Virus record (IMG/VR): IMGVR_UViG_3300015365_000054
Direction: 5' to 3' (one strand)
Length of the DNA stretch: 64,000 nt
DNA from: a virus
Taxonomy: Duplodnaviria > Heunggongvirae > Uroviricota > Caudoviricetes
Below, one piece after another: positions 1-9,935 of the stretch; position 1 is the stretch's first letter, and each line of letters begins with the position of its first letter. The position numbers and the translations under genes were made by a program. Under the pieces are notes generated by a model. The model was not told where the DNA came from and did not search any database. It worked only from the letters and a program-made list of their open reading frames with translations.

Positions 1-11
1 TAAAAATAATT

Positions 12-449
12 TCATATATTTTGCTCTACAACTTTTCTTTTATACTTTTGTATCATATGATGAACTTTTATATATAAGATAACTGCGCAAGTATAGCATC
101 TAATGGCTCTTTTGTCCATATCATTTGATACGGAATCACACATTGTACATTTATGAGAATAATCACCAGAAGCATACCCAAATTCCACTAAATCCTCTTC
201 AAATATTCCTTTTGCATCTGCATATTGCTTTATTTGTTCATTAGTCATTTCATCTGGGCAATGTTCAAACATCAGTTCATCAATTCTTGCTTGTAGCTGT
301 TCAATCTGGCGTTCGCAACACCTATGCGACTGCCATACCAATAATCCATCAGAAGAAATGTACTCGTATGTACCACAAAGCCACGAATTCTCTTTATCTC
401 GTTTAGCCCCGCAGTGGGGGCAGGTTTCGTTAGTAGTCATATGCCGCAC
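12..449 (-). CDS. small modular Zn-finger protein (module A N-terminus, second CxxC...CxxC)
   Basis: MTTNETCPHCGAK N-terminus is shared at DNA level with 430..747; later CTMC..CYTC. Confidence 0.7.
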   Translation of the reverse strand: MRHMTTNETCPHCGAKRDKENSWLCGTYEYISSDGLLVWQSHRCCERQIEQLQARIDELMFEHCPDEMTNEQIKQYADAKGIFEEDLVEFGYASGDYSHKCTMCDSVSNDMDKRAIRCYTCAVILYIKVHHMIQKYKRKVVEQNI

Positions 450-747
450 ATCCCCTCGCTCTGATTGCTACTGCGCACTCCATAGGCCCGCTTGTATCCC
501 CCATGTGCCATGACCAATGCAGGTCATCACATATCTTCGCACACGCCTCACGCTCATCCAGCACCGCCTGCCTCAACCTCTCAATCTCCACATCACGTTG
601 TTTAATCTGACGCTTCAGACATTCGCATTCAGCATAGGAAGTACTGCCGTCCCCCCAAACCAGCGCACCGCATTTGTATCGTCTGTAATTTGAAACCGAA
701 TGGTATGAGATTTCAGCCCCGCAGTGGGGGCAGGTTTCGTTAGTCAT
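430..747 (-). CDS. small modular protein (modules A, B and C)
   Basis: MTNETCPHCGAE, then EIERLRQAVLDEREACAKIC, then AIRARG. Confidence 0.75.
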   Translation of the reverse strand: MTNETCPHCGAEISYHSVSNYRRYKCGALVWGDGSTSYAECECLKRQIKQRDVEIERLRQAVLDEREACAKICDDLHWSWHMGDTSGPMECAVAIRARGCAAYDY

Positions 748-1292
748 CCGAATATCTCCTTAAAAAGCTCGGCTTGTTTTTCTGACGCAGCGGCACCCGC
801 AGTAGTCGCAGCAGAAGCCCTCTCAGTAGCATCCATCACGGCAGTTCTAGCAGTTCTGGCGGCTCTAGCAGCGGCACCCGCAGCACCCCACGCAGTTCTA
901 GCAGCCTCCCACGCAGCCTCCGACGCTGCCTCATACGATCTCCGCGCTTTCCCAGCAGACTTCGCAGCGACGGCTAATTCACTGTCTGTTGCCTTACCCT
1001 TAGCGAACCTTTCGGCCACGCCCAGCGCAGCTATGCTTCGTCGGTCAGTCATCAGGTGCTGCACTTGGCGAGCACAGGCAACTGCAAAAAGCCGCGCTTC
1101 TCGTTCACACTCTGTTGAGCGCAGACTCCAGATCGCATCATCTAGCCCGTTAGTTTCCAGAATGCGAACCAACGGTAGCGGATCATCGTCTGCTTCGCTC
1201 TTACCAAGAGCAGCCAAGAGTAGCCGCCAGCTGTTATCACTGTTCACGTACGGCTCTTGCGCACGGATTTTATTTAGTGTTGTGTAAATCAT
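744..1292 (-). CDS. phage hypothetical protein with Ala-rich C-terminal repeats (possibly Imm5-like)
   Basis: NGLDDAIWSL, ARLFAVACARQVQHL, then AAWxAA-type repeats; overlaps both neighbours by 4 nt. Confidence 0.7.
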   Translation of the reverse strand: MIYTTLNKIRAQEPYVNSDNSWRLLLAALGKSEADDDPLPLVRILETNGLDDAIWSLRSTECEREARLFAVACARQVQHLMTDRRSIAALGVAERFAKGKATDSELAVAAKSAGKARRSYEAASEAAWEAARTAWGAAGAAARAARTARTAVMDATERASAATTAGAAASEKQAELFKEIFG

Positions 1293-1693
1293 TTCACTTC
1301 ACCTCTTGCTCTGATTGCATCAGCACAAAACAATGCACCGTCGCGTTCTCGGTCATACTCATCGTAACTTTCATACTCTGCATCACACACCTTCGCGCAC
1401 GCCTCACGCTCATCTAGCACCGCCTGTTTCAACCGCTCAATCTCCGCAGCCTGAGCCGCGATCTGGCGTTGCATGTTTGGCACGTCCGCAATTAGGTTGG
1501 CAATCTCTTCGTCTGTTTTTCCACTTCCAAGAGTTTGAGCAAGTATGAAAATTTCATCGACGTTGGCTTCGTCTTTTGGGGCATCAGCAATCACAAGAAA
1601 TCTTGACAGGTCGTCACAGTTTTTATCTGCAACCAACAAAGTACTCCACTTAAGTGAAAGCATGTTCATATACCGCTCCTCCCAATGATCCAC
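1289..1693 (-). CDS. modular protein (modules B and C with unrelated N-terminus)
   Basis: QRQIAAQAAEIERLKQAVLDEREACAKVC...CADAIRARG; lies downstream of promoter 1729-1757. Confidence 0.75.
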   Translation of the reverse strand: MDHWEERYMNMLSLKWSTLLVADKNCDDLSRFLVIADAPKDEANVDEIFILAQTLGSGKTDEEIANLIADVPNMQRQIAAQAAEIERLKQAVLDEREACAKVCDAEYESYDEYDRERDGALFCADAIRARGEVK

Positions 1694-1728
1694 TGTTCAT
1701 AAAATGCCATATTTTGTCTGGATGACAG

Positions 1729-1757
1729 ATTATACATTATTCATTTTAAATATGCAA
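1729..1757 (-). promoter_or_regulatory. sigma70-type early promoter
   Basis: TTGCAT-17nt-TATAAT preceded by an A-tract. Confidence 0.7.
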
Positions 1758-1764
1758 CAGTTTT

Positions 1765-1986
1765 TTACCACCCAGACCAATCATCATTAAACCCACCACC
1801 CATGGATTCCTCCATGATTTCATCATAGGCATCTGTATCGTTTATATCTAGCACCTGATCTTCTGAGAATAAAGCAATTCCTTTGCTATTCTTCTTTCTT
1901 GATCTCTCCCCAGCTTGAACCTGAAACCCAATGTTTTTCCACTCTTCATATGTGGCATATTTCATAATTTGTTGCTCGCTATTCAT
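1765..1986 (-). CDS. small acidic hypothetical protein
   Basis: ORF with ATGA-type overlap; first 25 codons are duplicated at 4271-4346. Confidence 0.65.
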   Translation of the reverse strand: MNSEQQIMKYATYEEWKNIGFQVQAGERSRKKNSKGIALFSEDQVLDINDTDAYDEIMEESMGGGFNDDWSGW

Positions 1987-2135
1987 TTATATACCTCGTG
2001 TATCCAACAGCCAATTGCAGTTACAGTGATGAACACCGGAAGCATTGCAAAAAGCACATACCCGTTATACATAACGGCTGTAGCGGCTTGCTCCTCTATC
2101 TGTTTTTCGTAATCGCCATTCATTCATCACCTCTT
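1911..2135. repeat. 225-bp exact direct repeat, copy 1 (copy 2 at 4271-4495)
   Basis: Identical from cagcttgaacctgaaaccc to cattcatcacctctt; offset 2360. Confidence 0.95.
1983..2123 (-). CDS. 46-aa putative membrane protein, copy 1 (not in ORF track)
   Basis: MNGDYEKQIEEQAATAVMYNGYVLFAMLPVFITVTAIGCWIHEVYK; GAGGTG upstream. Confidence 0.6.
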   Translation of the reverse strand: MNGDYEKQIEEQAATAVMYNGYVLFAMLPVFITVTAIGCWIHEVYK

Positions 2136-2425
2136 GCTTTCAGCATCGCATCAGCAACGTCATATGCCCATCTCGCCAATTTTTCAAAATCAAAGACATG
2201 CCCGCCGCTAGCGATATTCCCCTGCATCGCACCAACGGCGATTCGATCTCTAAGATGCTTCACCCGCTTCAACCTCAACCTCTCAATCTCCGCAGCCTGA
2301 ATTGCGATTTGGCGTTCGTAACATTCTGGCGTTCTCGGCTTTTTACGGTTAGAGCCACAGTCATAATCGTTTGTTCCGACAAAATTTCGTTCAGCCCCGC
2401 AGTAGGAGCAAGTTTTATTAGTCAT
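2120..2425 (-). CDS. small modular protein (modules A and B, different C-terminal module)
   Basis: MTNKTCSYCGAE...YDCG...ERQIAIQAAEIERLR...AYDVADAMLKARG. Confidence 0.75.
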   Translation of the reverse strand: MTNKTCSYCGAERNFVGTNDYDCGSNRKKPRTPECYERQIAIQAAEIERLRLKRVKHLRDRIAVGAMQGNIASGGHVFDFEKLARWAYDVADAMLKARGDE

Positions 2426-2601
2426 GGCTTGGTTGCCTCCTGAACATTTTCAACGATTTTTTCTATTGCAGTTGCTGTGTATGGCTTGTCCTTGTCAGTC
2501 ATAGCACCGCCCATTGTTACTACATCAGATACAACTGCAACTGGTAGTTCAACAACAACGCCAACTGCTGCTTTAGTAAGATCGGAAAATAACTTAAACA
2601 T
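2422..2601 (-). CDS. 59-aa hypothetical protein (not in ORF track)
   Basis: MFKLFSDLTKAAVGVVVELPVAVVSDVVTMGGAMTDKDKPYTA...; RBS GAGGTG. Confidence 0.7.
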   Translation of the reverse strand: MFKLFSDLTKAAVGVVVELPVAVVSDVVTMGGAMTDKDKPYTATAIEKIVENVQEATKP

Positions 2602-2675
2602 TTAATTCACCTCAATTTAGTGTGCCGTAAAGGCAATATATAAAAAATGACATACCCACCATGCCCATACCCCAA
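2599..2675. repeat. 77-bp direct repeat, copy 1 (copy 2 at 4988-5064, one mismatch)
   Basis: catttaattcacctcaatttagtgtgc(c/a)gtaaagg...ccccaa; carries an RBS and ATG. Confidence 0.95.
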
Positions 2676-2708
2676 CGAAGAGGCGTTATCTCCACCCGTC
2701 AATTCAAA

Positions 2709-3026
2709 TTACTGCAAATCCCAAACCTTACCATCAGCATCACGATAGAAGTCATCGTTAGCATTAACCCAAATCTTTTCATTATCAACTGGGTCAATTA
2801 CATACCACTGATTGCCTTCCTGCTTGGCGTGAATTGTGCCAACCACAATAAAATTGTGTTCAGAAGTATTATCCTGAGTAGTGGTTGTGGTAGTTGTTGT
2901 AGTAACAATTTCTTCTTCATCATCATCGTAAAAATCATCATATCGCATAGTACGAGTCCTCTCAACAATAACGCCAATTAGTATAGCAAATAATAGAATA
3001 CAAATCAATAGAATAAGCAAATGCAC
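2709..3026 (-). CDS. N-terminally anchored membrane protein with acidic and poly-Thr tract
   Basis: Hydrophobic N-terminus, YDDFYDDDEEE, nine consecutive Thr. Confidence 0.7.
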   Translation of the reverse strand: MHLLILLICILLFAILIGVIVERTRTMRYDDFYDDDEEEIVTTTTTTTTTQDNTSEHNFIVVGTIHAKQEGNQWYVIDPVDNEKIWVNANDDFYRDADGKVWDLQ

Positions 3027-3035
3027 GTTAATCTC

Positions 3036-3740
3036 CTAACCAACTAATAACAATACGATAACAAGAATAATCACAAAAGCAACCAGTACACCTACAACAA
3101 TATCATTGTCAGATGAACGAGTTTGAATCACTACTGGTTGTGGTTGTGCAACTTGTTCCCCAGCATCAGCAGGTACGGTTTGTGCTACCATCTGACCATT
3201 ATCTACTGGAGTAAATTGTCCATTGACATAGGTACCCACTACGTATCCATTTTGGTTAACAACCTGCCCATTAGGGTATAGCAACGCATTGTTATTGTAA
3301 ATGCCGCCACCAGTGTACATAACTGTACCATATGGATGCAACATACCACCAATAATCAATCCAGTCAATAGACCATTGTTGTAATGGTATCCATATCCCC
3401 AGCCACCGCCGTAGTACCCACCAGGACTTGTGTATCTACCAGAATATGATCGATTGATTCTTGTAGACGTAGTAGTGGTAGTTGTGGTTGTACGTGGAGC
3501 AGAAACTGTACGTGGAGCAGTACTAAAACTGCCTCTTGACGTAGAGCCTGATGTACTAAAACTACCTCTGCTAGGTGAAGATGCTATCCTTGGTGAACTG
3601 AATCCACCGCGAAATGCTGACCCACCACTGAACCCACGACTACCACCGCCGTAACCACCGCCCGGTTTAGCATTGGCTGAACCAACTACCAACAGTGAAC
3701 ACAGTAATACCAATAGAATCTTTCTCATAAAGCCTCTCAA
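3036..3740 (-). CDS. secreted, C-terminally anchored Gly/Ser/Arg-rich protein
   Basis: Signal peptide (SANA), GGxGG/SRGS low-complexity region, poly-Thr, C-terminal TM helix. Confidence 0.75.
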   Translation of the reverse strand: MRGFMRKILLVLLCSLLVVGSANAKPGGGYGGGSRGFSGGSAFRGGFSSPRIASSPSRGSFSTSGSTSRGSFSTAPRTVSAPRTTTTTTTTSTRINRSYSGRYTSPGGYYGGGWGYGYHYNNGLLTGLIIGGMLHPYGTVMYTGGGIYNNNALLYPNGQVVNQNGYVVGTYVNGQFTPVDNGQMVAQTVPADAGEQVAQPQPVVIQTRSSDNDIVVGVLVAFVIILVIVLLLVG

Positions 3741-3756
3741 ATATTAAAAAACAACC

Positions 3757-4065
3757 TTACTCAAACTTCTTTTTCAATCTCTCAAGTTCAGCACGTTCAC
3801 GCTGCTCTTGCCGTTCTTTCATTACCTGTTCCTTTGCTAGTCGTGCCTCTTGTTCAGCATCCGTTTCTTCACGGTACTCAAAAAGATACAACCCCGAATG
3901 ATCATTATAATCCAACGTATCAAGACCATAACGAACATCACGCCCTTTATAGTATTCTTTTAGCCGTAACATACGGTTGATTACATCGTCAAATGTCTCG
4001 CCGTCAAACTTGTCATCTTGGCTATAATTGTCTACTAGCGTTCGAACCATTTTACGCTCGCTCAT
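3757..4065 (-). CDS. hypothetical protein with coiled-coil C-terminus
   Basis: GGAG RBS; directly downstream of promoter 4098-4125. Confidence 0.75.
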   Translation of the reverse strand: MSERKMVRTLVDNYSQDDKFDGETFDDVINRMLRLKEYYKGRDVRYGLDTLDYNDHSGLYLFEYREETDAEQEARLAKEQVMKERQEQRERAELERLKKKFE

Positions 4066-4097
4066 TACAATCTCCCATTGCCTAACTCTATGTAGCT

Positions 4098-4125
4098 ATT
4101 ATACGGGAATGGTACCCAAAGTCAA
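4098..4125 (-). promoter_or_regulatory. sigma70-type early promoter
   Basis: AAAAAACTA-TTGACT-16nt-TATAAT. Confidence 0.75.
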
Positions 4126-4172
4126 TAGTTTTTTACTAAAAATAAACCTAATAGAATCAATAACTTACGAGA

Positions 4173-4346
4173 TCACTGTCTCAGTAGCCATATTACCTGC
4201 TCCGGTCCGGTGAATTGATCTTTAAAGAGTTTGTAATAATCTGAAGCCCATTCAGGATTTTGAGCAATCACAGCTTGAACCTGAAACCCAATGTTTTTCC
4301 ACTCTTCATATGTGGCATATTTCATAATTTGTTGCTCGCTATTCAT
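4173..4346 (-). CDS. 57-aa chimeric ORF (first 25 codons of 1765..1986 fused in frame to a new tail)
   Basis: MNSEQQIMKYATYEEWKNIGFQVQA/VIAQNPEWASDYYKLFKDQFTGPEQVIWLLRQ. Confidence 0.5.
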   Translation of the reverse strand: MNSEQQIMKYATYEEWKNIGFQVQAVIAQNPEWASDYYKLFKDQFTGPEQVIWLLRQ

Positions 4347-4495
4347 TTATATACCTCGTGTATCCAACAGCCAATTGCAGTTACAGTGATGAACACCGGA
4401 AGCATTGCAAAAAGCACATACCCGTTATACATAACGGCTGTAGCGGCTTGCTCCTCTATCTGTTTTTCGTAATCGCCATTCATTCATCACCTCTT
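4271..4495. repeat. 225-bp exact direct repeat, copy 2
   Basis: Identical to 1911-2135. Confidence 0.95.
4343..4483 (-). CDS. 46-aa putative membrane protein, copy 2
   Basis: Identical to 1983..2123. Confidence 0.6.
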   Translation of the reverse strand: MNGDYEKQIEEQAATAVMYNGYVLFAMLPVFITVTAIGCWIHEVYK

Positions 4496-4599
4496 ACTTT
4501 AACAATTCGTTTTCTTCTGACAGCAAAGTGCCAATTTTATCCAACAAACCCCGCAGCCTTCCAATCTCCGCAGTGTTTACAAACATCAGTCTTGTTCAT
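4494..4599 (-). pseudogene. frameshifted module A/module B deletion remnant
   Basis: MNKTDVCKHCG continues in another frame as AEIGRLRGLLDKIGTLLSEENELLK; junction CTGCGG. Confidence 0.55.
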
Positions 4600-4990
4600 A
4601 TTTTCTTTTTGCACCATTAACCTCGTTCATTTGTTTTTCTAGCATATCACTGTGAAATGCTGGATTTGGGTTTTCAATTCTGTAGGCAAACCCACCACTA
4701 AAATAAACACAGTATCCATATCCATGTCCACTCTCGATTACGATTGTATATGCTGCTGTTATAGCTTGTCCACCAACTCCACCAAAACCTAACGCAGTTG
4801 ATCCCCATACCTGCGGAAACATTGCGACCACTGTTAGATCATATTCGCTGTGCTTCCTTTTTCTGGTTATACGAGCATCCTTGTCTTTTGATGCCCAATC
4901 TCTGTCTTCGTATTCAATTTCTGGAAACCCAACATGCACAGCATGGCCTAATGCTCTATGCAAAGAATTTAACGGACTATCTATACTCAT
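4586..4990 (-). CDS. phage hypothetical protein
   Basis: MFPQVWGSTALGFGGVGGQAIT; RBS and ATG are supplied by the 77-bp repeat. Confidence 0.75.
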   Translation of the reverse strand: MSIDSPLNSLHRALGHAVHVGFPEIEYEDRDWASKDKDARITRKRKHSEYDLTVVAMFPQVWGSTALGFGGVGGQAITAAYTIVIESGHGYGYCVYFSGGFAYRIENPNPAFHSDMLEKQMNEVNGAKRKYEQD

Positions 4991-5064
4991 TTAATTCACC
5001 TCAATTTAGTGTGCAGTAAAGGCAATATATAAAAAATGACATACCCACCATGCCCATACCCCAA
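4988..5064. repeat. 77-bp direct repeat, copy 2
   Basis: See 2599-2675. Confidence 0.95.
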
Positions 5065-5104
5065 TGAAAAAGCCAATAATATATGCTTTCTGTTTCTCAT
5101 TCAT
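5006..5104 (-). CDS. 32-aa membrane peptide (not in ORF track)
   Basis: MNEKQKAYIIGFFIGVWAWWVCHFLYIAFTAH; its 3' part is the 77-bp repeat. Confidence 0.5.
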   Translation of the reverse strand: MNEKQKAYIIGFFIGVWAWWVCHFLYIAFTAH

Positions 5105-5261
5105 CTTTTATTCTCTCATTCATACGACAAGACATACCACGAAACCCCTTATCTATATACCTAATATTGATATAAGTGCCGCATTCATAATAATAAAAAA
5201 CTTGGTCTTTTTCCTTCATAGATGATCCGCAAAATTTACAACATCTTAGGTCATAACTCAT
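5097..5261 (-). CDS. 54-aa Zn-finger protein, module A relative (not in ORF track)
   Basis: MSYDLRCCKFCGSS...YYYECGTY. Confidence 0.6.
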   Translation of the reverse strand: MSYDLRCCKFCGSSMKEKDQVFYYYECGTYINIRYIDKGFRGMSCRMNERIKDE

Positions 5262-5622
5262 GTTTATTCACTCTTGCTCTTATTGATGCTGAAATTTGTT
5301 CGCACCCTACGTACCTATCTGCAATTTTCGCACACTCTTCGGACTCAAGAACTGCGGCGTTCCTATATACTTGTGAATACCTTCCTTGTCCAGTAGTGAT
5401 GAACTGGTAACAAGGAAGGCACATATCACCAACAAACTGCCCTTGGTGAGTATGGTTTTTGCAATTTTTAACAATACATTTATCCTGCCTCCTGTATTCG
5501 GATAATGCAAATTTCAACCGTGCAGTTTCCACCTCTAGAGCAGCAACTCTTTTTTGGTAACAATTGTGTTCACCAATAAATGTTATTTCAACTCCACAGT
5601 AAGTACAGGTATTGTTGGGCAT
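5251..5622 (-). CDS. small modular protein (divergent modules A, B and C)
   Basis: MPNNTCTYCGVE...AVLESEECAKIAD...ASIRARV; GAGGTG RBS. Confidence 0.75.
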   Translation of the reverse strand: MPNNTCTYCGVEITFIGEHNCYQKRVAALEVETARLKFALSEYRRQDKCIVKNCKNHTHQGQFVGDMCLPCYQFITTGQGRYSQVYRNAAVLESEECAKIADRYVGCEQISASIRARVNKHEL

Positions 5623-5633
5623 AATATTTCACC

Positions 5634-6542
5634 TCAAGAAACAAACTCGTTAAAGAAATTTTCAATGAAAGCCAATCTATCCTGTTCTTCCAAACTTACA
5701 AAATGATCTCTGTTGCTGTTGATGTGATCTACCAATGGATAATACTCCTCTGGCAAATTATTCTTGTTTGCAATCAACCATTCCGAAGTAACCTTTTCTG
5801 CTCTAATGCGAGCAAACAATTTCTTGGTTAGATAATATGGTGATTTGATCTTCAATACAGTAGTAGCAGTATACACAACAAATCCTTCTTTTTGAGAATT
5901 CTTTGCTTCGTTAACCAAATCACTGAATCTACACACACTACATCGTGGAATAAATGCACCAAATTCTCGTAACTTAACTTCTGATAGAGAAGGAATAGCA
6001 GGATCAGGAATATCAAGCACTCCAGTAGAAATATTTCTTCTGCCTAGAAAATACGCACCAGTTTTTTCCTTAATGATATGCGGATCACTATGATCAACAA
6101 TTTCAAACATATAGGTGTATCCCACATCAAGAGCACCTTTCAATGGTGTGATATGCTTTTCTGCCAGTGTTACGAAATCAGAATCTAATGATCCCGTAGT
6201 GGATACAATCAACCCATGCACAGGATGCATGGTTGCTGCGCCCATAAATCCATTGATCTTCTCAATCGAAATAACCAAGTTATCCCGTGGAATATCTGTA
6301 TTATTTTCAAAACGATTAAAGATCTTCTTGAATGGCAGACAGACAATGTTGTAATCTGCATCCACAACCATGCCACGCATTTCCATTAATTCTGGTGTCC
6401 AGAGATTATCATAGAATACACGATTGTGGTACTTCAAAACAAATAGATCAGGATAACGCTTTGATTCCTTGCGCAATACTAATCTAGGATTGTTTTCAAC
6501 AAAATATCTTATTTGAGTTGGAGTCAACATGTTATATCTCAA
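5634..6542 (-). CDS. rnlA: RNA ligase 1 (T4 Rnl1-like)
   Basis: LFVLKY, E-x-RG, motif I KINGF, motif IV EGFVV, motif V KIKSPYY. Confidence 0.8.
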   Translation of the reverse strand: MRYNMLTPTQIRYFVENNPRLVLRKESKRYPDLFVLKYHNRVFYDNLWTPELMEMRGMVVDADYNIVCLPFKKIFNRFENNTDIPRDNLVISIEKINGFMGAATMHPVHGLIVSTTGSLDSDFVTLAEKHITPLKGALDVGYTYMFEIVDHSDPHIIKEKTGAYFLGRRNISTGVLDIPDPAIPSLSEVKLREFGAFIPRCSVCRFSDLVNEAKNSQKEGFVVYTATTVLKIKSPYYLTKKLFARIRAEKVTSEWLIANKNNLPEEYYPLVDHINSNRDHFVSLEEQDRLAFIENFFNEFVS

Positions 6543-6985
6543 TCAATTTCAAAATGCTTTATATCAACGAAATTCTCAAAATATTTCACAACATCCTCAT
6601 TGGATACGAAACGATTCTTCATCCTTTCTATAGTATCATATGGGACATTATGCACTGATCCAAAATTATGCTTCATATGGATGATAATCATCGCATACCC
6701 ATAATCCTTTGTCAATTGGGCATAGGGTGTAATTTCAGAGATCTTAGTAAATGTGTTGGACACGAAAATTTTTTCTGTACCATTAAGCATTTCACATTCA
6801 ACGGAAAAACGACACCATTTGTGCGCCTTATTTAAATAAGATGCATCAAATTTGTATTCTTCATTGTCCATGAAGTACATATCAGTTTCCCGATGTACGC
6901 TATTTGGTGCTGCCTGTGCTGCTGCTTGGGCATAAGTGGACTTACCAGAACCGGGTAGTCCACGAATTATGTATAGTGTTTTCAT
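6539..6985 (-). CDS. stand-alone P-loop kinase (AAA_33 / polynucleotide kinase-like)
   Basis: IIRGLPGSGKST, VSNTFT, SVHNVP..TIERMKNRF. Confidence 0.8.
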   Translation of the reverse strand: MKTLYIIRGLPGSGKSTYAQAAAQAAPNSVHRETDMYFMDNEEYKFDASYLNKAHKWCRFSVECEMLNGTEKIFVSNTFTKISEITPYAQLTKDYGYAMIIIHMKHNFGSVHNVPYDTIERMKNRFVSNEDVVKYFENFVDIKHFEID

Positions 6986-7798
6986 TTATGCTGCTGCTTT
7001 TGTGTCGGTGAGTGTTTTTACTCTGGAGAGAACAGTCTGCTGCTGTCCATTATATTCACGATATCCCTTGATGGTTCCACGGATGCTCAACTTCAAACCC
7101 ACTTTAGGTGCCCATGCTGACGACATCACAGTGATGCATGCATTGGTAGTACTCTCCACCATTATAGTCAGAGCTGATGCACCATACAGTGTCTGTAATG
7201 GGATTGATTTGATCACTGTAACATCAATATCAACACGCTTGCCAGCAACACCATAATGTGCATCTTTACTTGGTGTTGGCAGCAACAGATGCTGATATTT
7301 TTCACGAAGGACTTGAGCAACATAATACAGAATAGAATCTTCTTTGAATGCACCAGTGGTCATCATCCATTGCATGTAGGATACATCAATATCTTCGAAT
7401 TTGTGACCAGTGAAACGACCAATAGGCATGATTCCGGAATTTACTAATTCCTTGTATTCGACCATCAACTTCTCACGGGCAGCAATTTCATCCACAATTC
7501 GCTGCTGACGGGCTGCTTCACGTTTTTCCAATTCCTCCTTTGTTGTGCGCTTGATTTCACGCATTTCAATCAAAAGAGTATTTCTGTCGTAACTGATAGG
7601 CATACTACGCTTTTCGGCATATTCTGTTGCCTTGGCAATAGCCACATCAATATCCTGAGACAGGTTCTGGATATGATATGAAAGCATCACCTTGCGACGA
7701 CCAAAGAAGTCAACACTATTTTCCCGCAGGGTATAGAACGCGCAGGTTTCACCAATTCCAATGTAGAGGACAGGTATGAAAGCGTCTGTGTTGCTCAT
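6986..7798 (-). CDS. hypothetical protein with DUF3820-like segment and C-terminal OB-fold-like region
   Basis: MPIGRFTGHKF..ID.SYMQW; C-terminal GTIKGYREYNGQQQTVLSRVK. Confidence 0.65.
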   Translation of the reverse strand: MSNTDAFIPVLYIGIGETCAFYTLRENSVDFFGRRKVMLSYHIQNLSQDIDVAIAKATEYAEKRSMPISYDRNTLLIEMREIKRTTKEELEKREAARQQRIVDEIAAREKLMVEYKELVNSGIMPIGRFTGHKFEDIDVSYMQWMMTTGAFKEDSILYYVAQVLREKYQHLLLPTPSKDAHYGVAGKRVDIDVTVIKSIPLQTLYGASALTIMVESTTNACITVMSSAWAPKVGLKLSIRGTIKGYREYNGQQQTVLSRVKTLTDTKAAA

Positions 7799-7829
7799 GC
7801 CAAACTCCGGTTAACTTTCCAGTTCGCGT

Positions 7830-7858
7830 ATTAAACCACACGAAACATGGAAAGTCAA
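7830..7858 (-). promoter_or_regulatory. sigma70-type early promoter
   Basis: A-tract, then TTGACT-17nt-TTTAAT; GGAG RBS before ATG 7798. Confidence 0.7.
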
Positions 7859-7881
7859 CAGGTTTTTTTTTCGGATTTTGG

Positions 7882-8166
7882 TTACCTATATAATCTTTCG
7901 AGATTTTCTAGGCGCATCAACCCCATTCTTCTGGTTTTATTGTCGATTGGCTTCGGGAATACTGGCACGAAATCAACACCATCTATGTTCTTTCCGGAAC
8001 ACAGAGAACTTCCATATAGAATTTCGCCAGTCAGCTTATTTTTGTACTTGTATATGATCTCATTGTCATTATCTGAGATGATATCATGAGTATTAATTTT
8101 CTTCGCTTTGCCAATCATAGGATTCTCCACCATAACCAAAATCATCATCTTCTTCATTATCATCAA
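7882..8166 (-). CDS. hypothetical protein (true start probably internal)
   Basis: IDGVDFVPVF; the 5' part overlaps 8093..8281. Confidence 0.55.
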   Translation of the reverse strand: MMIMKKMMILVMVENPMIGKAKKINTHDIISDNDNEIIYKYKNKLTGEILYGSSLCSGKNIDGVDFVPVFPKPIDNKTRRMGLMRLENLERLYR

Positions 8167-8281
8167 AATTGTCTTTTGGATTATATCGCCAACGACTTTC
8201 GTTTTTCAGTCTCTTCTGTCGCAATCCATCACTGTTCACATTATAACGATCACTGGACTCATTAAAACTCTTGTTAGACAT
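8093..8281 (-). CDS. small protein with basic then acidic segments
   Basis: RQKRLKNE.RWRY followed by an acidic tail. Confidence 0.6.
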   Translation of the reverse strand: MSNKSFNESSDRYNVNSDGLRQKRLKNESRWRYNPKDNFDDNEEDDDFGYGGESYDWQSEEN

Positions 8282-8304
8282 AGTAGTGTACCATCAATCC
8301 TCTA

Positions 8305-8838
8305 TTAAATTTTAATCTCACCTTTTTCAACTCTCAACCAAAACGTTCTATACAATCCGCGCTCTCTACCATAAGCTTCGATTTCAGATGGTGAATCATA
8401 ATACTCATCCCCAACAAAATCTCCATCTGGTATTGGTTGGTATCGTTTCCCTAAGAATGCATACGTACCATCCACATAATCTCTAAGCTCACCACACAAA
8501 TATTGTTTTACATGTACAAGCTCATGAGAAAGATCCATCAATATAATACTCAATCTGGCTCTAACACTTTTGTGTCCTAATATTCTATCAGCTTTCAACA
8601 CAATTGTAAATTTTTTAATATCATTATCATTGCCATCATAAGTACACCAAGCTTTATATTTCATCAAAGACTTTGTATATTCATTCGCCATCAATTCATC
8701 ATCATCTAATATTCGTATATTCACCCTAGACTTCTTCAAAATGCCTCGTCGGACAAATTTAGTCAATACATAATCAGTAAATTTTCTAATCAAAGGTCTA
8801 TCACCAACTTTTAAATGTTTACTGGTTATTACTACCAT
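8305..8838 (-). CDS. putative zinc metallopeptidase (HExxH)
   Basis: LSHELVHVKQY...SPSEIEAY. Confidence 0.7.
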   Translation of the reverse strand: MVVITSKHLKVGDRPLIRKFTDYVLTKFVRRGILKKSRVNIRILDDDELMANEYTKSLMKYKAWCTYDGNDNDIKKFTIVLKADRILGHKSVRARLSIILMDLSHELVHVKQYLCGELRDYVDGTYAFLGKRYQPIPDGDFVGDEYYDSPSEIEAYGRERGLYRTFWLRVEKGEIKI

Positions 8839-8846
8839 TCTAGTAC

Positions 8847-9935
8847 CTACTCTATTCGTAAGATGATTGTATCCTTATTGATTGAGCCATTCAGTTGCTG
8901 TGGTTTAGAGTTGATCTCCCCCATTACTTTGCGAAGAACAACTTTCCCACCATCCAAAACCCTAGATAGAGTTTCTTTTGGTTTTCTCAACGTTTTAGCA
9001 ATAGACTCCGAATATTTATAATTTTCGATTTTACTACCCTTCACGGATAGACCAGCACCATCTGCTGCGACGTATACACCAAGTTTACGTGTTTTCACGT
9101 TAAATACCCACAATTTCTCAGCAGATAGGATCTTAATTGGGTTAATTGATTTCACATTGAATTCAGTGTCTTCCTTTTTATAATTCAATTTAGCGATTCT
9201 TTTTTCCAATGAAACTGCCTTCTTCTTTCTTGGCTTTCTGGTTGCTAGTGTATTTGATGCCAGACGATTTGCCGCAGTGACAATATCAGATAGGAATGCA
9301 ATTGCATTTTTCATGTCTTTATCTGATCTTGGATATGATTCTTTGATGTATGGATCACTTTTTCTTTTATGTATGACATCCGTCAGATTATCAACCAATC
9401 CATTAAAATATTCGGCAATCTTATTGGAATGTATTGCCTTTACATTATTATCAATGAGCCACTTGTATGCATCAAATGTTGTGATTGCCTTGTTGAAAAA
9501 GAAATCATCAAATACACCTTCAAGTTCCGCAATATATTGATCAGTCTTTCCCTGAATTCGGTCTTGGATATTCACCACATTATCAATGATAACTGGTTCT
9601 TCTGCTTTACCTTGTGTGCTGGATATTTCAGATAGGAATGCTTTTAGTTTATTATTGAAACTAAGCATTGTTTTATCGTCCACACGAACACCACGCGAAA
9701 GCATTCGCGCCAGCCACCCAAGACTGATGCTTACAGGATTATGAATTTTGATATCAACCACATTCACAGCCGGAATGTTTGATTTGATGTAATCAATCAG
9801 ATATTGACGCGAATCTGTCGCATCACGATTTAAATTATACCACTGGAATGCCTGTGCAAGATCTGCCTGATTTGCTTGCTGATCTCCCCAGACTGGTTCC
9901 AATGGCGTACTCACTACCACTTTACTCATGACCAA
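8847..9935 (-). CDS. hypothetical protein resembling conserved T4-like phage ORFs
   Basis: AFQWYN; C-terminal LWVFNVKTRKLGVY...KTLRKP. Confidence 0.7.
   Translation of the reverse strand: MVMSKVVVSTPLEPVWGDQQANQADLAQAFQWYNLNRDATDSRQYLIDYIKSNIPAVNVVDIKIHNPVSISLGWLARMLSRGVRVDDKTMLSFNNKLKAFLSEISSTQGKAEEPVIIDNVVNIQDRIQGKTDQYIAELEGVFDDFFFNKAITTFDAYKWLIDNNVKAIHSNKIAEYFNGLVDNLTDVIHKRKSDPYIKESYPRSDKDMKNAIAFLSDIVTAANRLASNTLATRKPRKKKAVSLEKRIAKLNYKKEDTEFNVKSINPIKILSAEKLWVFNVKTRKLGVYVAADGAGLSVKGSKIENYKYSESIAKTLRKPKETLSRVLDGGKVVLRKVMGEINSKPQQLNGSINKDTIILRIE

Follow-up and report, generated by a model that had tools for sequence, protein, structure and literature searches.

A tandem accessory-gene slot in a freshwater T4-like phage, with two cassette versions probably joined through an imported block

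The subject of this study is a slot for small accessory genes in a 64,000-nt stretch of DNA from an uncultured virus of the Caudoviricetes (IMG/VR record IMGVR_UViG_3300015365_000054; the whole stretch is referred to here as the window). The slot is the gap between two short membrane-protein genes, tm32 and tm46, and the window holds it twice in tandem, with a different version of the cargo in each copy. We consider it probable that the two versions became joined through a block from another locus by means of two illegitimate joins, within a hyperplastic region of a T4-like phage genome. An original prediction, made by a model that saw the letters and their open reading frames (ORFs), had proposed that both alleles of a swappable cassette were captured by a recent duplication. 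The two alleles and the near identity of the copies agree with that proposal, whereas the imported block and the two illegitimate joints do not. In particular, a plain duplication would not place 1.6 kb from another locus between the units, nor would it give the right-hand gene that begins with MNSEQQ a tail that is the C-terminus of a repeat protein.

A repeat search of the window returned two pairs of direct repeats on the minus strand, which bracket two differing gene sets. Repeat A (86 nt at 95% identity, spacing 2389 nt) occupies 2599-2684 in its left copy and 4988-5073 in its right copy; repeat B (230 nt with 1 mismatch, spacing 2360 nt) occupies 1911-2140 and 4271-4500. Base-by-base comparison delimited a 77-nt core of A (2599-2675 = 4988-5064), with a single mismatch at 2626/5015, and an exact run of 225 nt in B (1911-2135 = 4271-4495), the same coordinates that had been predicted for a 77-bp and a 225-bp repeat. 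With these spacings, A and B followed by A′ and B′ in the same orientation constitute head-to-tail units. In a self-BLAST of the 125.7-kb record, B was the only long repeat with at least 99% identity, the remaining long repeats being paralogs at 74-81%. A chance origin of the repeats is excluded. The near identity of the copies implies either that the event was recent or that the copies are undergoing homogenisation. Moreover, the B copies are identical here, whereas tm46 in other relatives is 6-15% different at the nucleotide level, which suggests that the parents came from one population or that the copies were homogenised.

Both repeats consist mainly of coding sequence. The A core is tm32 coding sequence over 63 of its 77 nt, and A finishes with the tm32 stop codon, a ribosome site and an ATG. 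B is nearly all coding: its right copy spans the last codons of a gene of the zinc-ribbon (zf) family, all of tm46 (4343-4483) and codons 1-25 of the MNSEQQ gene, and its left copy holds tm46 at 1983-2123. A promoter and terminator scan found no promoter-like site inside A or B in either copy, and no terminator-like site in the A copies or the two promoter regions. Relative to shuffled sequences, neither the two A copies nor the two promoter regions showed a significant fold (z-scores 0.30, −0.01, −0.42 and −1.16), and on this ground a reading of repeat A as a structured RNA or a promoter early stem-loop (PeSL) was rejected. A comparison of 1-9000 with Rfam gave no match (E ≤ 1).

All genes of the region lie on the minus strand. 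In transcription order, they begin with an RNA ligase gene (6542..5634), zf123, zf54 and tm32 (5006..5104), after which come A, the right cassette (p134R, 4586..4990, and a zf-family relic, 4484..4620) and B with tm46. The order continues with a 57-aa chimeric gene (4173..4346), a promoter, the genes p102, gly234 and tm105, and a relic of tm32. It ends with A′, the left cassette (p59, 2422..2601, and zf101, 2120..2425), B′ with the second tm46, and the full-length, 73-aa MNSEQQ gene (MNSEQQ73, 1765..1986). Repeat A gives its ribosome site and ATG to p134R on the right and to p59 on the left; the ORF calls at 4990..4586 and 2601..2422 thereby bear out the predicted role of the 77-bp unit as the source of both signals for whichever gene comes next. 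Two further predictions on the asymmetry of the copies held. The 32-aa gene tm32, whose 3′ two-thirds lie inside A, is intact only on the right (5104..5006), and its left copy within A′ amounts to 22 startless codons after an in-frame stop. Conversely, the MNSEQQ gene keeps its original tail only on the left, where the 73-aa protein matches phrog_24889 over residues 9-64 (E 6e-8); no PHROG family matched the 57-aa chimeric protein.

Between the two slot copies lies the 1.6-kb block (2685-4270), which contains its own promoter and three genes. The promoter (4098..4125, minus strand) is of the sigma-70 early type, with TTGACT, a 16-nt spacer and TATAAT; at 11/12 matches it is the top site within 1-9000, it lies outside both repeats, and its motif has 4 matches in the window against 0.54 expected. 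The first gene, p102 (3757..4065, minus strand), encodes a soluble protein with a charged coiled-coil tail and matches phrog_25568. The second, gly234 (3036..3740, minus strand), encodes a predicted exported Gly/Ser/Thr-rich protein with a signal-like N-terminus and a C-terminal membrane segment (hydropathy segments 1-26 and 209-234), and the third, tm105 (2709..3026, minus strand), a protein with an N-terminal membrane anchor (hydropathy segment 1-27).

The origin of the block was assessed by comparison with relatives, namely the lake-metagenome contigs L015, L016 and L017 and Logan contigs of runs X1, X5, X6 and X8. In all, 15 runs contain parts of the stretch; they are labelled mostly as freshwater or lake-water metagenomes, with small wastewater, marine and aquaculture shares, and no RNA run is listed among them. 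L017 has the promoter, p102, gly234 and tm105 at 93.5% nucleotide identity to 4168-2699 (91%, 95% and 98% amino acid identity for the three proteins, respectively). There, the block is followed by a different kinase gene (46% amino acid identity), an extra 79-aa gene, the RNA ligase gene (95%) and zf123. It thus lies on the opposite side of the RNA ligase gene, upstream of it, a layout that one X5 contig has as well. The X1 version of the block matches the window at 100% identity over 2680-4275, and the next 150 letters past 2680 are unlike the window. These comparisons of sequence indicate that the block was imported from another locus. Separately, a conserved unit composed of a gene end, an AT-rich stretch, a TTGACTTTGGG -35 region, TATAAT and a leader was observed at 1816-1890, 3973-4083 and 4588-4691 of L017 and at 4065-4172 of the window. 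It precedes different genes: in L017 these are p102 and a homolog of p182, and in the window the gene is p102. The unit resembles a PeSL, although one lacking a detectable stem-loop.

The two boundaries of the block with the slot copies can be placed almost to the base. At the first joint (J1; 4271..4276, minus strand), the native repeat-protein gene and the terminal part of B would have 6 nt in common. Identity between the B copies stops at 4271; contigs of X6 follow the window to 4276, and the X1 block contig follows it to 4275. Past 4276, three X6 contigs read, on the minus strand and in the frame of the tail, as another repeat unit. Because B ends at 4271 and X6 agrees with the window up to 4276, six bases would have been common to both parents, as in a microhomology joint. 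The gene spanning J1, the 57-aa chimera (minus strand), continues in frame from the MNSEQQ N-terminus into the final 32 residues of a repeat-protein gene, and its residues 21/22-56 match the C-termini of two L017 repeat proteins (tblastn, 54% and 50%, E 6e-10 and 3e-8). No further piece of such a gene was found in the window or in G000, a second record of the duplicated layout. In L017, 2313-3982 is taken up by a tandem array of four genes (159, 90, 109 and 195 aa) made of units of ~30 residues with the pattern …AEPVIAQ…W/Y…Y/WA…VIKGRW…; the window genome keeps only a 32-residue tail of such a gene. At the second joint (J2; 2676..2685, minus strand), the native 3′ flank of the block meets the truncated tm32. 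Block contigs of X1 and X8 leave the window at 2680 and tm32 homology starts at 2684, and the joint costs tm32 its first ~10 codons. Judging by these alignments, both joints are illegitimate and both lie inside genes.

A layout of this kind might also be produced by assembly, if two or three co-occurring strains were threaded through shared sequence, one contributing tm32-A-p134R-relic-B-tail-block and another block-A′-p59-zf101-B-MNSEQQ73. Several close variants of the region do occur in lake metagenomes, B (225 nt) exceeds a typical short read, and the block, being 100% identical in X1, could bridge two strains. The exact chimeric protein was found on 4 contigs, compared with 15 for p134R, 18 for p59, 16 for zf101, 20 for tm46 and 19 for MNSEQQ73; most contigs with p134R or p59 therefore need not hold the chimeric protein, although such counts do not separate alleles because short contigs break at repeats. 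However, both novel joints require real molecules, and a strain starting at the truncated tm32 behind the block would need that illegitimate joint too. Together, J1 and J2 make a cycle in the assembly graph, which resolves into a linear genome only as a tandem unless the joints sit in different strains. In addition, the A copies are phased by the single-base difference within the 77-nt repeat, which falls within the span of a single read, and the longest of the 4 contigs with the chimeric protein reaches 199 kb. Finally, the layout recurs in two records that do not have the same ends: G000, which is registered as the window's own assembly, begins at window position 1064, shows the identical duplicated arrangement and differs at 2 of 62,937 bases (31543 and 33874). 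We therefore regard an assembly chimera as very unlikely.

The content of the slot was then compared among the relatives. Parts left uncovered (for example, 1603-1869, or 4540-5066 in X1) were not counted as absence unless a contig bridged them. An empty slot is present in L015 and L016, in which zf123, zf54 and tm32 (94% amino acid identity) are followed after 5 nt by tm46 (80%) and zf paralogs, and in an X6 contig that joins 2123 to 4995. The left cassette alone is represented by a 3052-nt X1 contig that joins 2676 to 5066, skipping exactly 2389 nt, the length predicted for an excision product. This contig has 147 nt on the shorter side of its joint, with 0 differences over 2530-2676 and 10 over 5066-5610 (545 nt), and X1 has no cover over 4540-4806, in p134R. 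At 2676 it has the left-type base, and from 5069 on its sequence is of the right type; since no 31-mer of the window shows this combination, the contig is a true alternative haplotype, not an artefact of repeat collapse. The X1 contig accordingly belongs to a related phage in which an intact tm32 is directly followed by p59, that is, to a single slot with the left cassette. An X5 contig presents a further state: A is followed, in the place of p134R (409 nt), by 316 letters that could not be aligned at 88% likeness, and then by the relic, tm46 and a zf paralog. On this evidence, the tm32-tm46 gap is a naturally polymorphic slot with at least four states. The predicted swappability of the slot is consequently well supported, given that relatives show empty, left-cassette-only and other-content states.

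Wider searches yielded no further genome against which the slot could be compared. Megablast of 1-9000 against GenBank phages gave no match. Scans of IMG/VR with MNSEQQ73, tm105, a 23-nt piece of A and the 27-nt J1 joint returned nothing, and records of the window genome or close to it may be excluded from such scans. Relatives of p134R were found in IMG/VR at 7 loci with 47-61% identity, none of them with another gene of the region. Relatives of the RNA ligase were found at 5 loci with 38-46% identity and without slot genes; these loci have in common at most the kinase or one or two conserved neighbours (p362, p270).

The change of cargo at fixed boundaries in several relatives might suggest a dedicated site-specific cassette system that recognises A and B, whether it resembles an integron or relies on a homing endonuclease. 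An integron would require an integrase gene and attC-like folded sites; here, no integrase, recombinase or homing-endonuclease family was detected among the scanned ORFs of 12-9935 (18 ORFs, plus 3 more compared with PHROGs only; short ORFs were left out). Furthermore, A and B are ordinary coding sequences with no hairpin, significant fold or Rfam match, and the new joints fall inside genes and destroy them. Such a system is hardly credible here.

The preferred reading, a tandem of two slot versions joined through the imported block, can be cast as follows. The tm32-tm46 gap would act as a recombination slot, and the cargo of related phages would differ because the conserved coding sequences on either side provide homology for its exchange. 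At J1, codon 25 of the MNSEQQ gene would have been fused in frame to the last unit of the repeat-protein gene by way of the 6-nt microhomology, and at J2 the 3′ flank of the block would have been joined to about codon 11 of tm32. An economical route would start from an L017-like order, in which a deletion from the block flank to tm32 would give J2. J1 would then arise by unequal exchange guided by microhomology, in which the MNSEQQ gene of a close, co-infecting relative with p134R would recombine with the last repeat of the repeat-protein gene. Homologous exchange between co-infecting close relatives probably contributed too. The structure needs at least two illegitimate joins; as for their order, we infer it only.

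A single crossover in B would produce precisely the same layout if a mini-circle of block-A′-p59-zf101-B, closed by J1 and J2, entered a single-slot genome carrying p134R in the manner of Campbell. A crossover in B (or A) would be the reverse of the excision predicted below, as proposed for PeSL mini-circles, and reversible insertion and excision of mini-circles is the model for T4-type phages in the relevant parts of one account (PMC2839356). The identity of the B copies fits this route as well. However, both illegitimate joints would still be needed first, and no events would be saved; the circle junction was not observed, and A and B are coding sequences and not PeSLs. Entry of a circle is, in our view, unlikely.

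For the tandem as it stands, recombination between the repeats was followed in silico. A crossover between the A copies removes 2389 nt and leaves tm32-p59-zf101, and a crossover between the B copies removes 2360 nt and leaves p134R-relic-tm46-MNSEQQ73; in both products, tm32 and MNSEQQ73 are intact and the block is lost. We predict that UvsX-type recombination crosses A with A or B with B, excising ~2.4 kb as a circle that carries the block. This instability is predicted because UvsX-type recombination genes are present and because of experiments with T4. The tandem might even be a maintained generator of genotypes (both cassettes, p134R only, or p59-zf101 only) that also releases a 2.4-kb promoter-bearing circle, a proposal that we judge distinctly unlikely. 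If it were true, the circle could re-enter any relative with tm32 or tm46, and the membrane-protein block would be a non-autonomous mobile cassette riding on conserved coding flanks and not on PeSLs.

Several observations weigh against the proposed origin and behaviour of the tandem. The basis of J1 is a 30-letter consensus of loose ends from one run (3 contigs, agreement 0.9). At J2, any microhomology is weak, at most 5 nt (2680-2684), as read from the ends of local alignments alone. The evidence from read runs consists of contigs of relatives in four runs, none of which spans the whole structure, and G000 and the 4 contigs with the chimeric protein need not come from independent samples. Exact repeats of 225 nt should be unstable in the presence of UvsX-type recombination, yet several contigs carry the tandem. 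No deletion product or circle of the window genome itself was seen, the X1 contig being that of a related phage. The persistence of the tandem form would imply that it is either young or selected.

The genes of the two cassettes and their flanks are mostly small and without a named function. The single-pass protein of tm32 has a hydrophobic segment at residues 7-29, and the 46-aa tm46 has one hydrophobic segment, both by hydropathy. As the first gene of the right cassette, p134R belongs to a widespread family of environmental phage proteins, with at least 183 related clusters, none of which has a name or a Pfam domain; neither a Pfam nor a PHROG family matched the protein itself. An AlphaFold2 model from 33 sequences was confident (alpha+beta, pLDDT 88), and Foldseek comparison of this model with the PDB gave no match at E ≤ 0.001. 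Two other routes to a fold gave nothing convincing: the best match in a VIA-align search had Z 5.3, which is within the noise range stated for the tool, and a model from the Atlas was poor, with structural neighbours at TM under 0.5. The relic behind p134R is a zinc-ribbon paralog with an internal deletion and a frameshift. In translation, its CxxC start and KVRGD end share one reading frame, which is interrupted by a stop, and another frame contains a piece of the coiled coil; the relic matches a zf paralog of L015 by tblastn. In the left cassette, p59 matches phrog_33676 (E 2e-13) and has one hydrophobic segment, and zf101 is an intact zinc-ribbon and coiled-coil paralog that aligns with the other paralogs, its PHROG matches falling on the C-terminal half. 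A PADLOC search matched 0 of 16 region proteins, save for one marginal match of 1289-1693 (E 0.0012). From the promoter type and the membrane segments, we would guess that the cargo consists of early-expressed accessories of the envelope or of host takeover.

The zf family itself comprises at least six paralogs within 12-5622, in which a CxxC zinc ribbon at the N-terminus is combined with a coiled coil of the pattern RQI...AEIERL. They lie at 12-449, 430-747, 1289-1693, 2120-2425, 4484-4620 (the relic), 5097-5261 and 5251-5622; the paralog at 1289-1693 retains the coiled coil and lacks the CxxC start. The paralogs have conserved DNA segments in common (repeat families D3, D5 and D6), and contigs of relatives fuse them to one another, with joints at 738>1289, 556>1383, 1310>2273 and 320>4349. 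The family seems to serve as portable homology by which the region expands and contracts.

The genome is that of a freshwater T4-like phage. The T4-type core genes in the window encode a DNA polymerase of family B (phrog_262), a recombinase similar to UvsX, a DnaB-like helicase, a primase, a clamp loader, a ribonucleotide reductase, a thymidylate synthase and a DNA ligase; a tail fibre protein is encoded as well. The slot is adjoined by the RNA ligase and a polynucleotide-kinase-like ATPase. Within 1-5622, most ORFs match no PHROG or a PHROG without a function, and Pfam gave no match above its curated cut-off for any of them. The region is thus a hyperplastic stretch of accessory genes, in which variable small non-core genes are added to a T4-type core.

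Other parts of the genome also vary or repeat. The alignment of 5634-6985 with L017 6075-7659 shows the ligase at 95% identity and the adjoining kinase-like gene at only 46%, and an X1 contig has 719 additional letters between zf123 and the ligase; the kinase-ligase stretch looks like another swapped module adjoining the slot. In p182 (744-1292, phrog_18326), the C-terminal half is rich in alanine and is encoded by DNA with short, imperfect periodic repeats (family D2); a long ORF lies antisense to the gene at 724-1287. The p182 homolog of L017 is directly upstream of the block; in the window, p182 lies ~1.4 kb downstream of the block, past the left slot copy. Beyond the window, at G000 76976-81687, three paralogous segments of ~600-680 nt stand in tandem and are 75-81% identical.

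Among known systems, the closest comparison is with the hyperplastic regions of T4-type phages, for which modular shuffling mediated by PeSLs and excision of mini-circles are described in the parts of Arbiol et al. 2010 (PMC2839356) and Comeau et al. 2014 (PMC4122927) that deal with them. As in those regions, the phage is T4-like, small early genes of unknown function are densely packed, and close relatives differ at fixed points by insertion, deletion or replacement. The flanks are short and conserved and contain the ribosome site and start codon of the next gene, excision of small circles is predicted, and the promoter-leader unit of the block recurs before different genes in L017. A PeSL, however, is an intergenic unit of ~100 bp that extends from the upstream stop codon to the next gene's ribosome site and start codon, with a sigma-70-type promoter preceded by an AT-rich region and a stable stem-loop that serves as terminator or attenuator. 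By contrast, A and B are coding sequence (the 3′ end of tm32; tm46 and a gene start) with neither promoter nor stem-loop. The tandem also holds two alleles at once, and its new joints are intragenic products of illegitimate joining.

A second comparison is with the dmd-tifA locus of T4, where, according to the sections of Srikant et al. 2022 (PMC9391042) on amplification, segmental amplifications bounded by microhomologies of 6-10 bp arise readily and are limited by headful packaging; the same sections cite Wu et al. 1991 and Kumagai et al. 1993. The present case shares a head-to-tail repeat of an accessory segment and, at J1, a probable 6-nt microhomology, and on the terms of that source headful packaging should limit gains here too. 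It differs in that the units carry different cargo and in that a 1.6-kb foreign block lies between them, which makes two joints instead of a single one. The tandem is, moreover, a natural variant and not a laboratory-selected one, with no selective agent known. A third parallel comes from a T4-like cyanophage whose 'ORFanage' region was lost spontaneously, as reported in part of PMC4503421. Insofar as that part describes it, both cases concern gain or loss of blocks of small unknown genes in T4-like phages of aquatic hosts; the change there is a spontaneous deletion, whereas the change observed in the present case is a gain, with deletion no more than a prediction.

The event is of an ordinary kind for recombination in T4-like phages and reveals no new mechanism, but it is unusually detailed here. 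Four slot states in lake populations, and one genome with two of them, provide a natural snapshot of accessory-gene gain in T4-like phages, in which both new joints are readable at base level. Laboratory findings on T4, namely duplication at microhomologies and shuffling by mini-circles, are thereby tied to uncultured freshwater phages. The comparison also extends the notion of portable homology beyond promoter and terminator cassettes, as conserved small coding genes can serve in this capacity.

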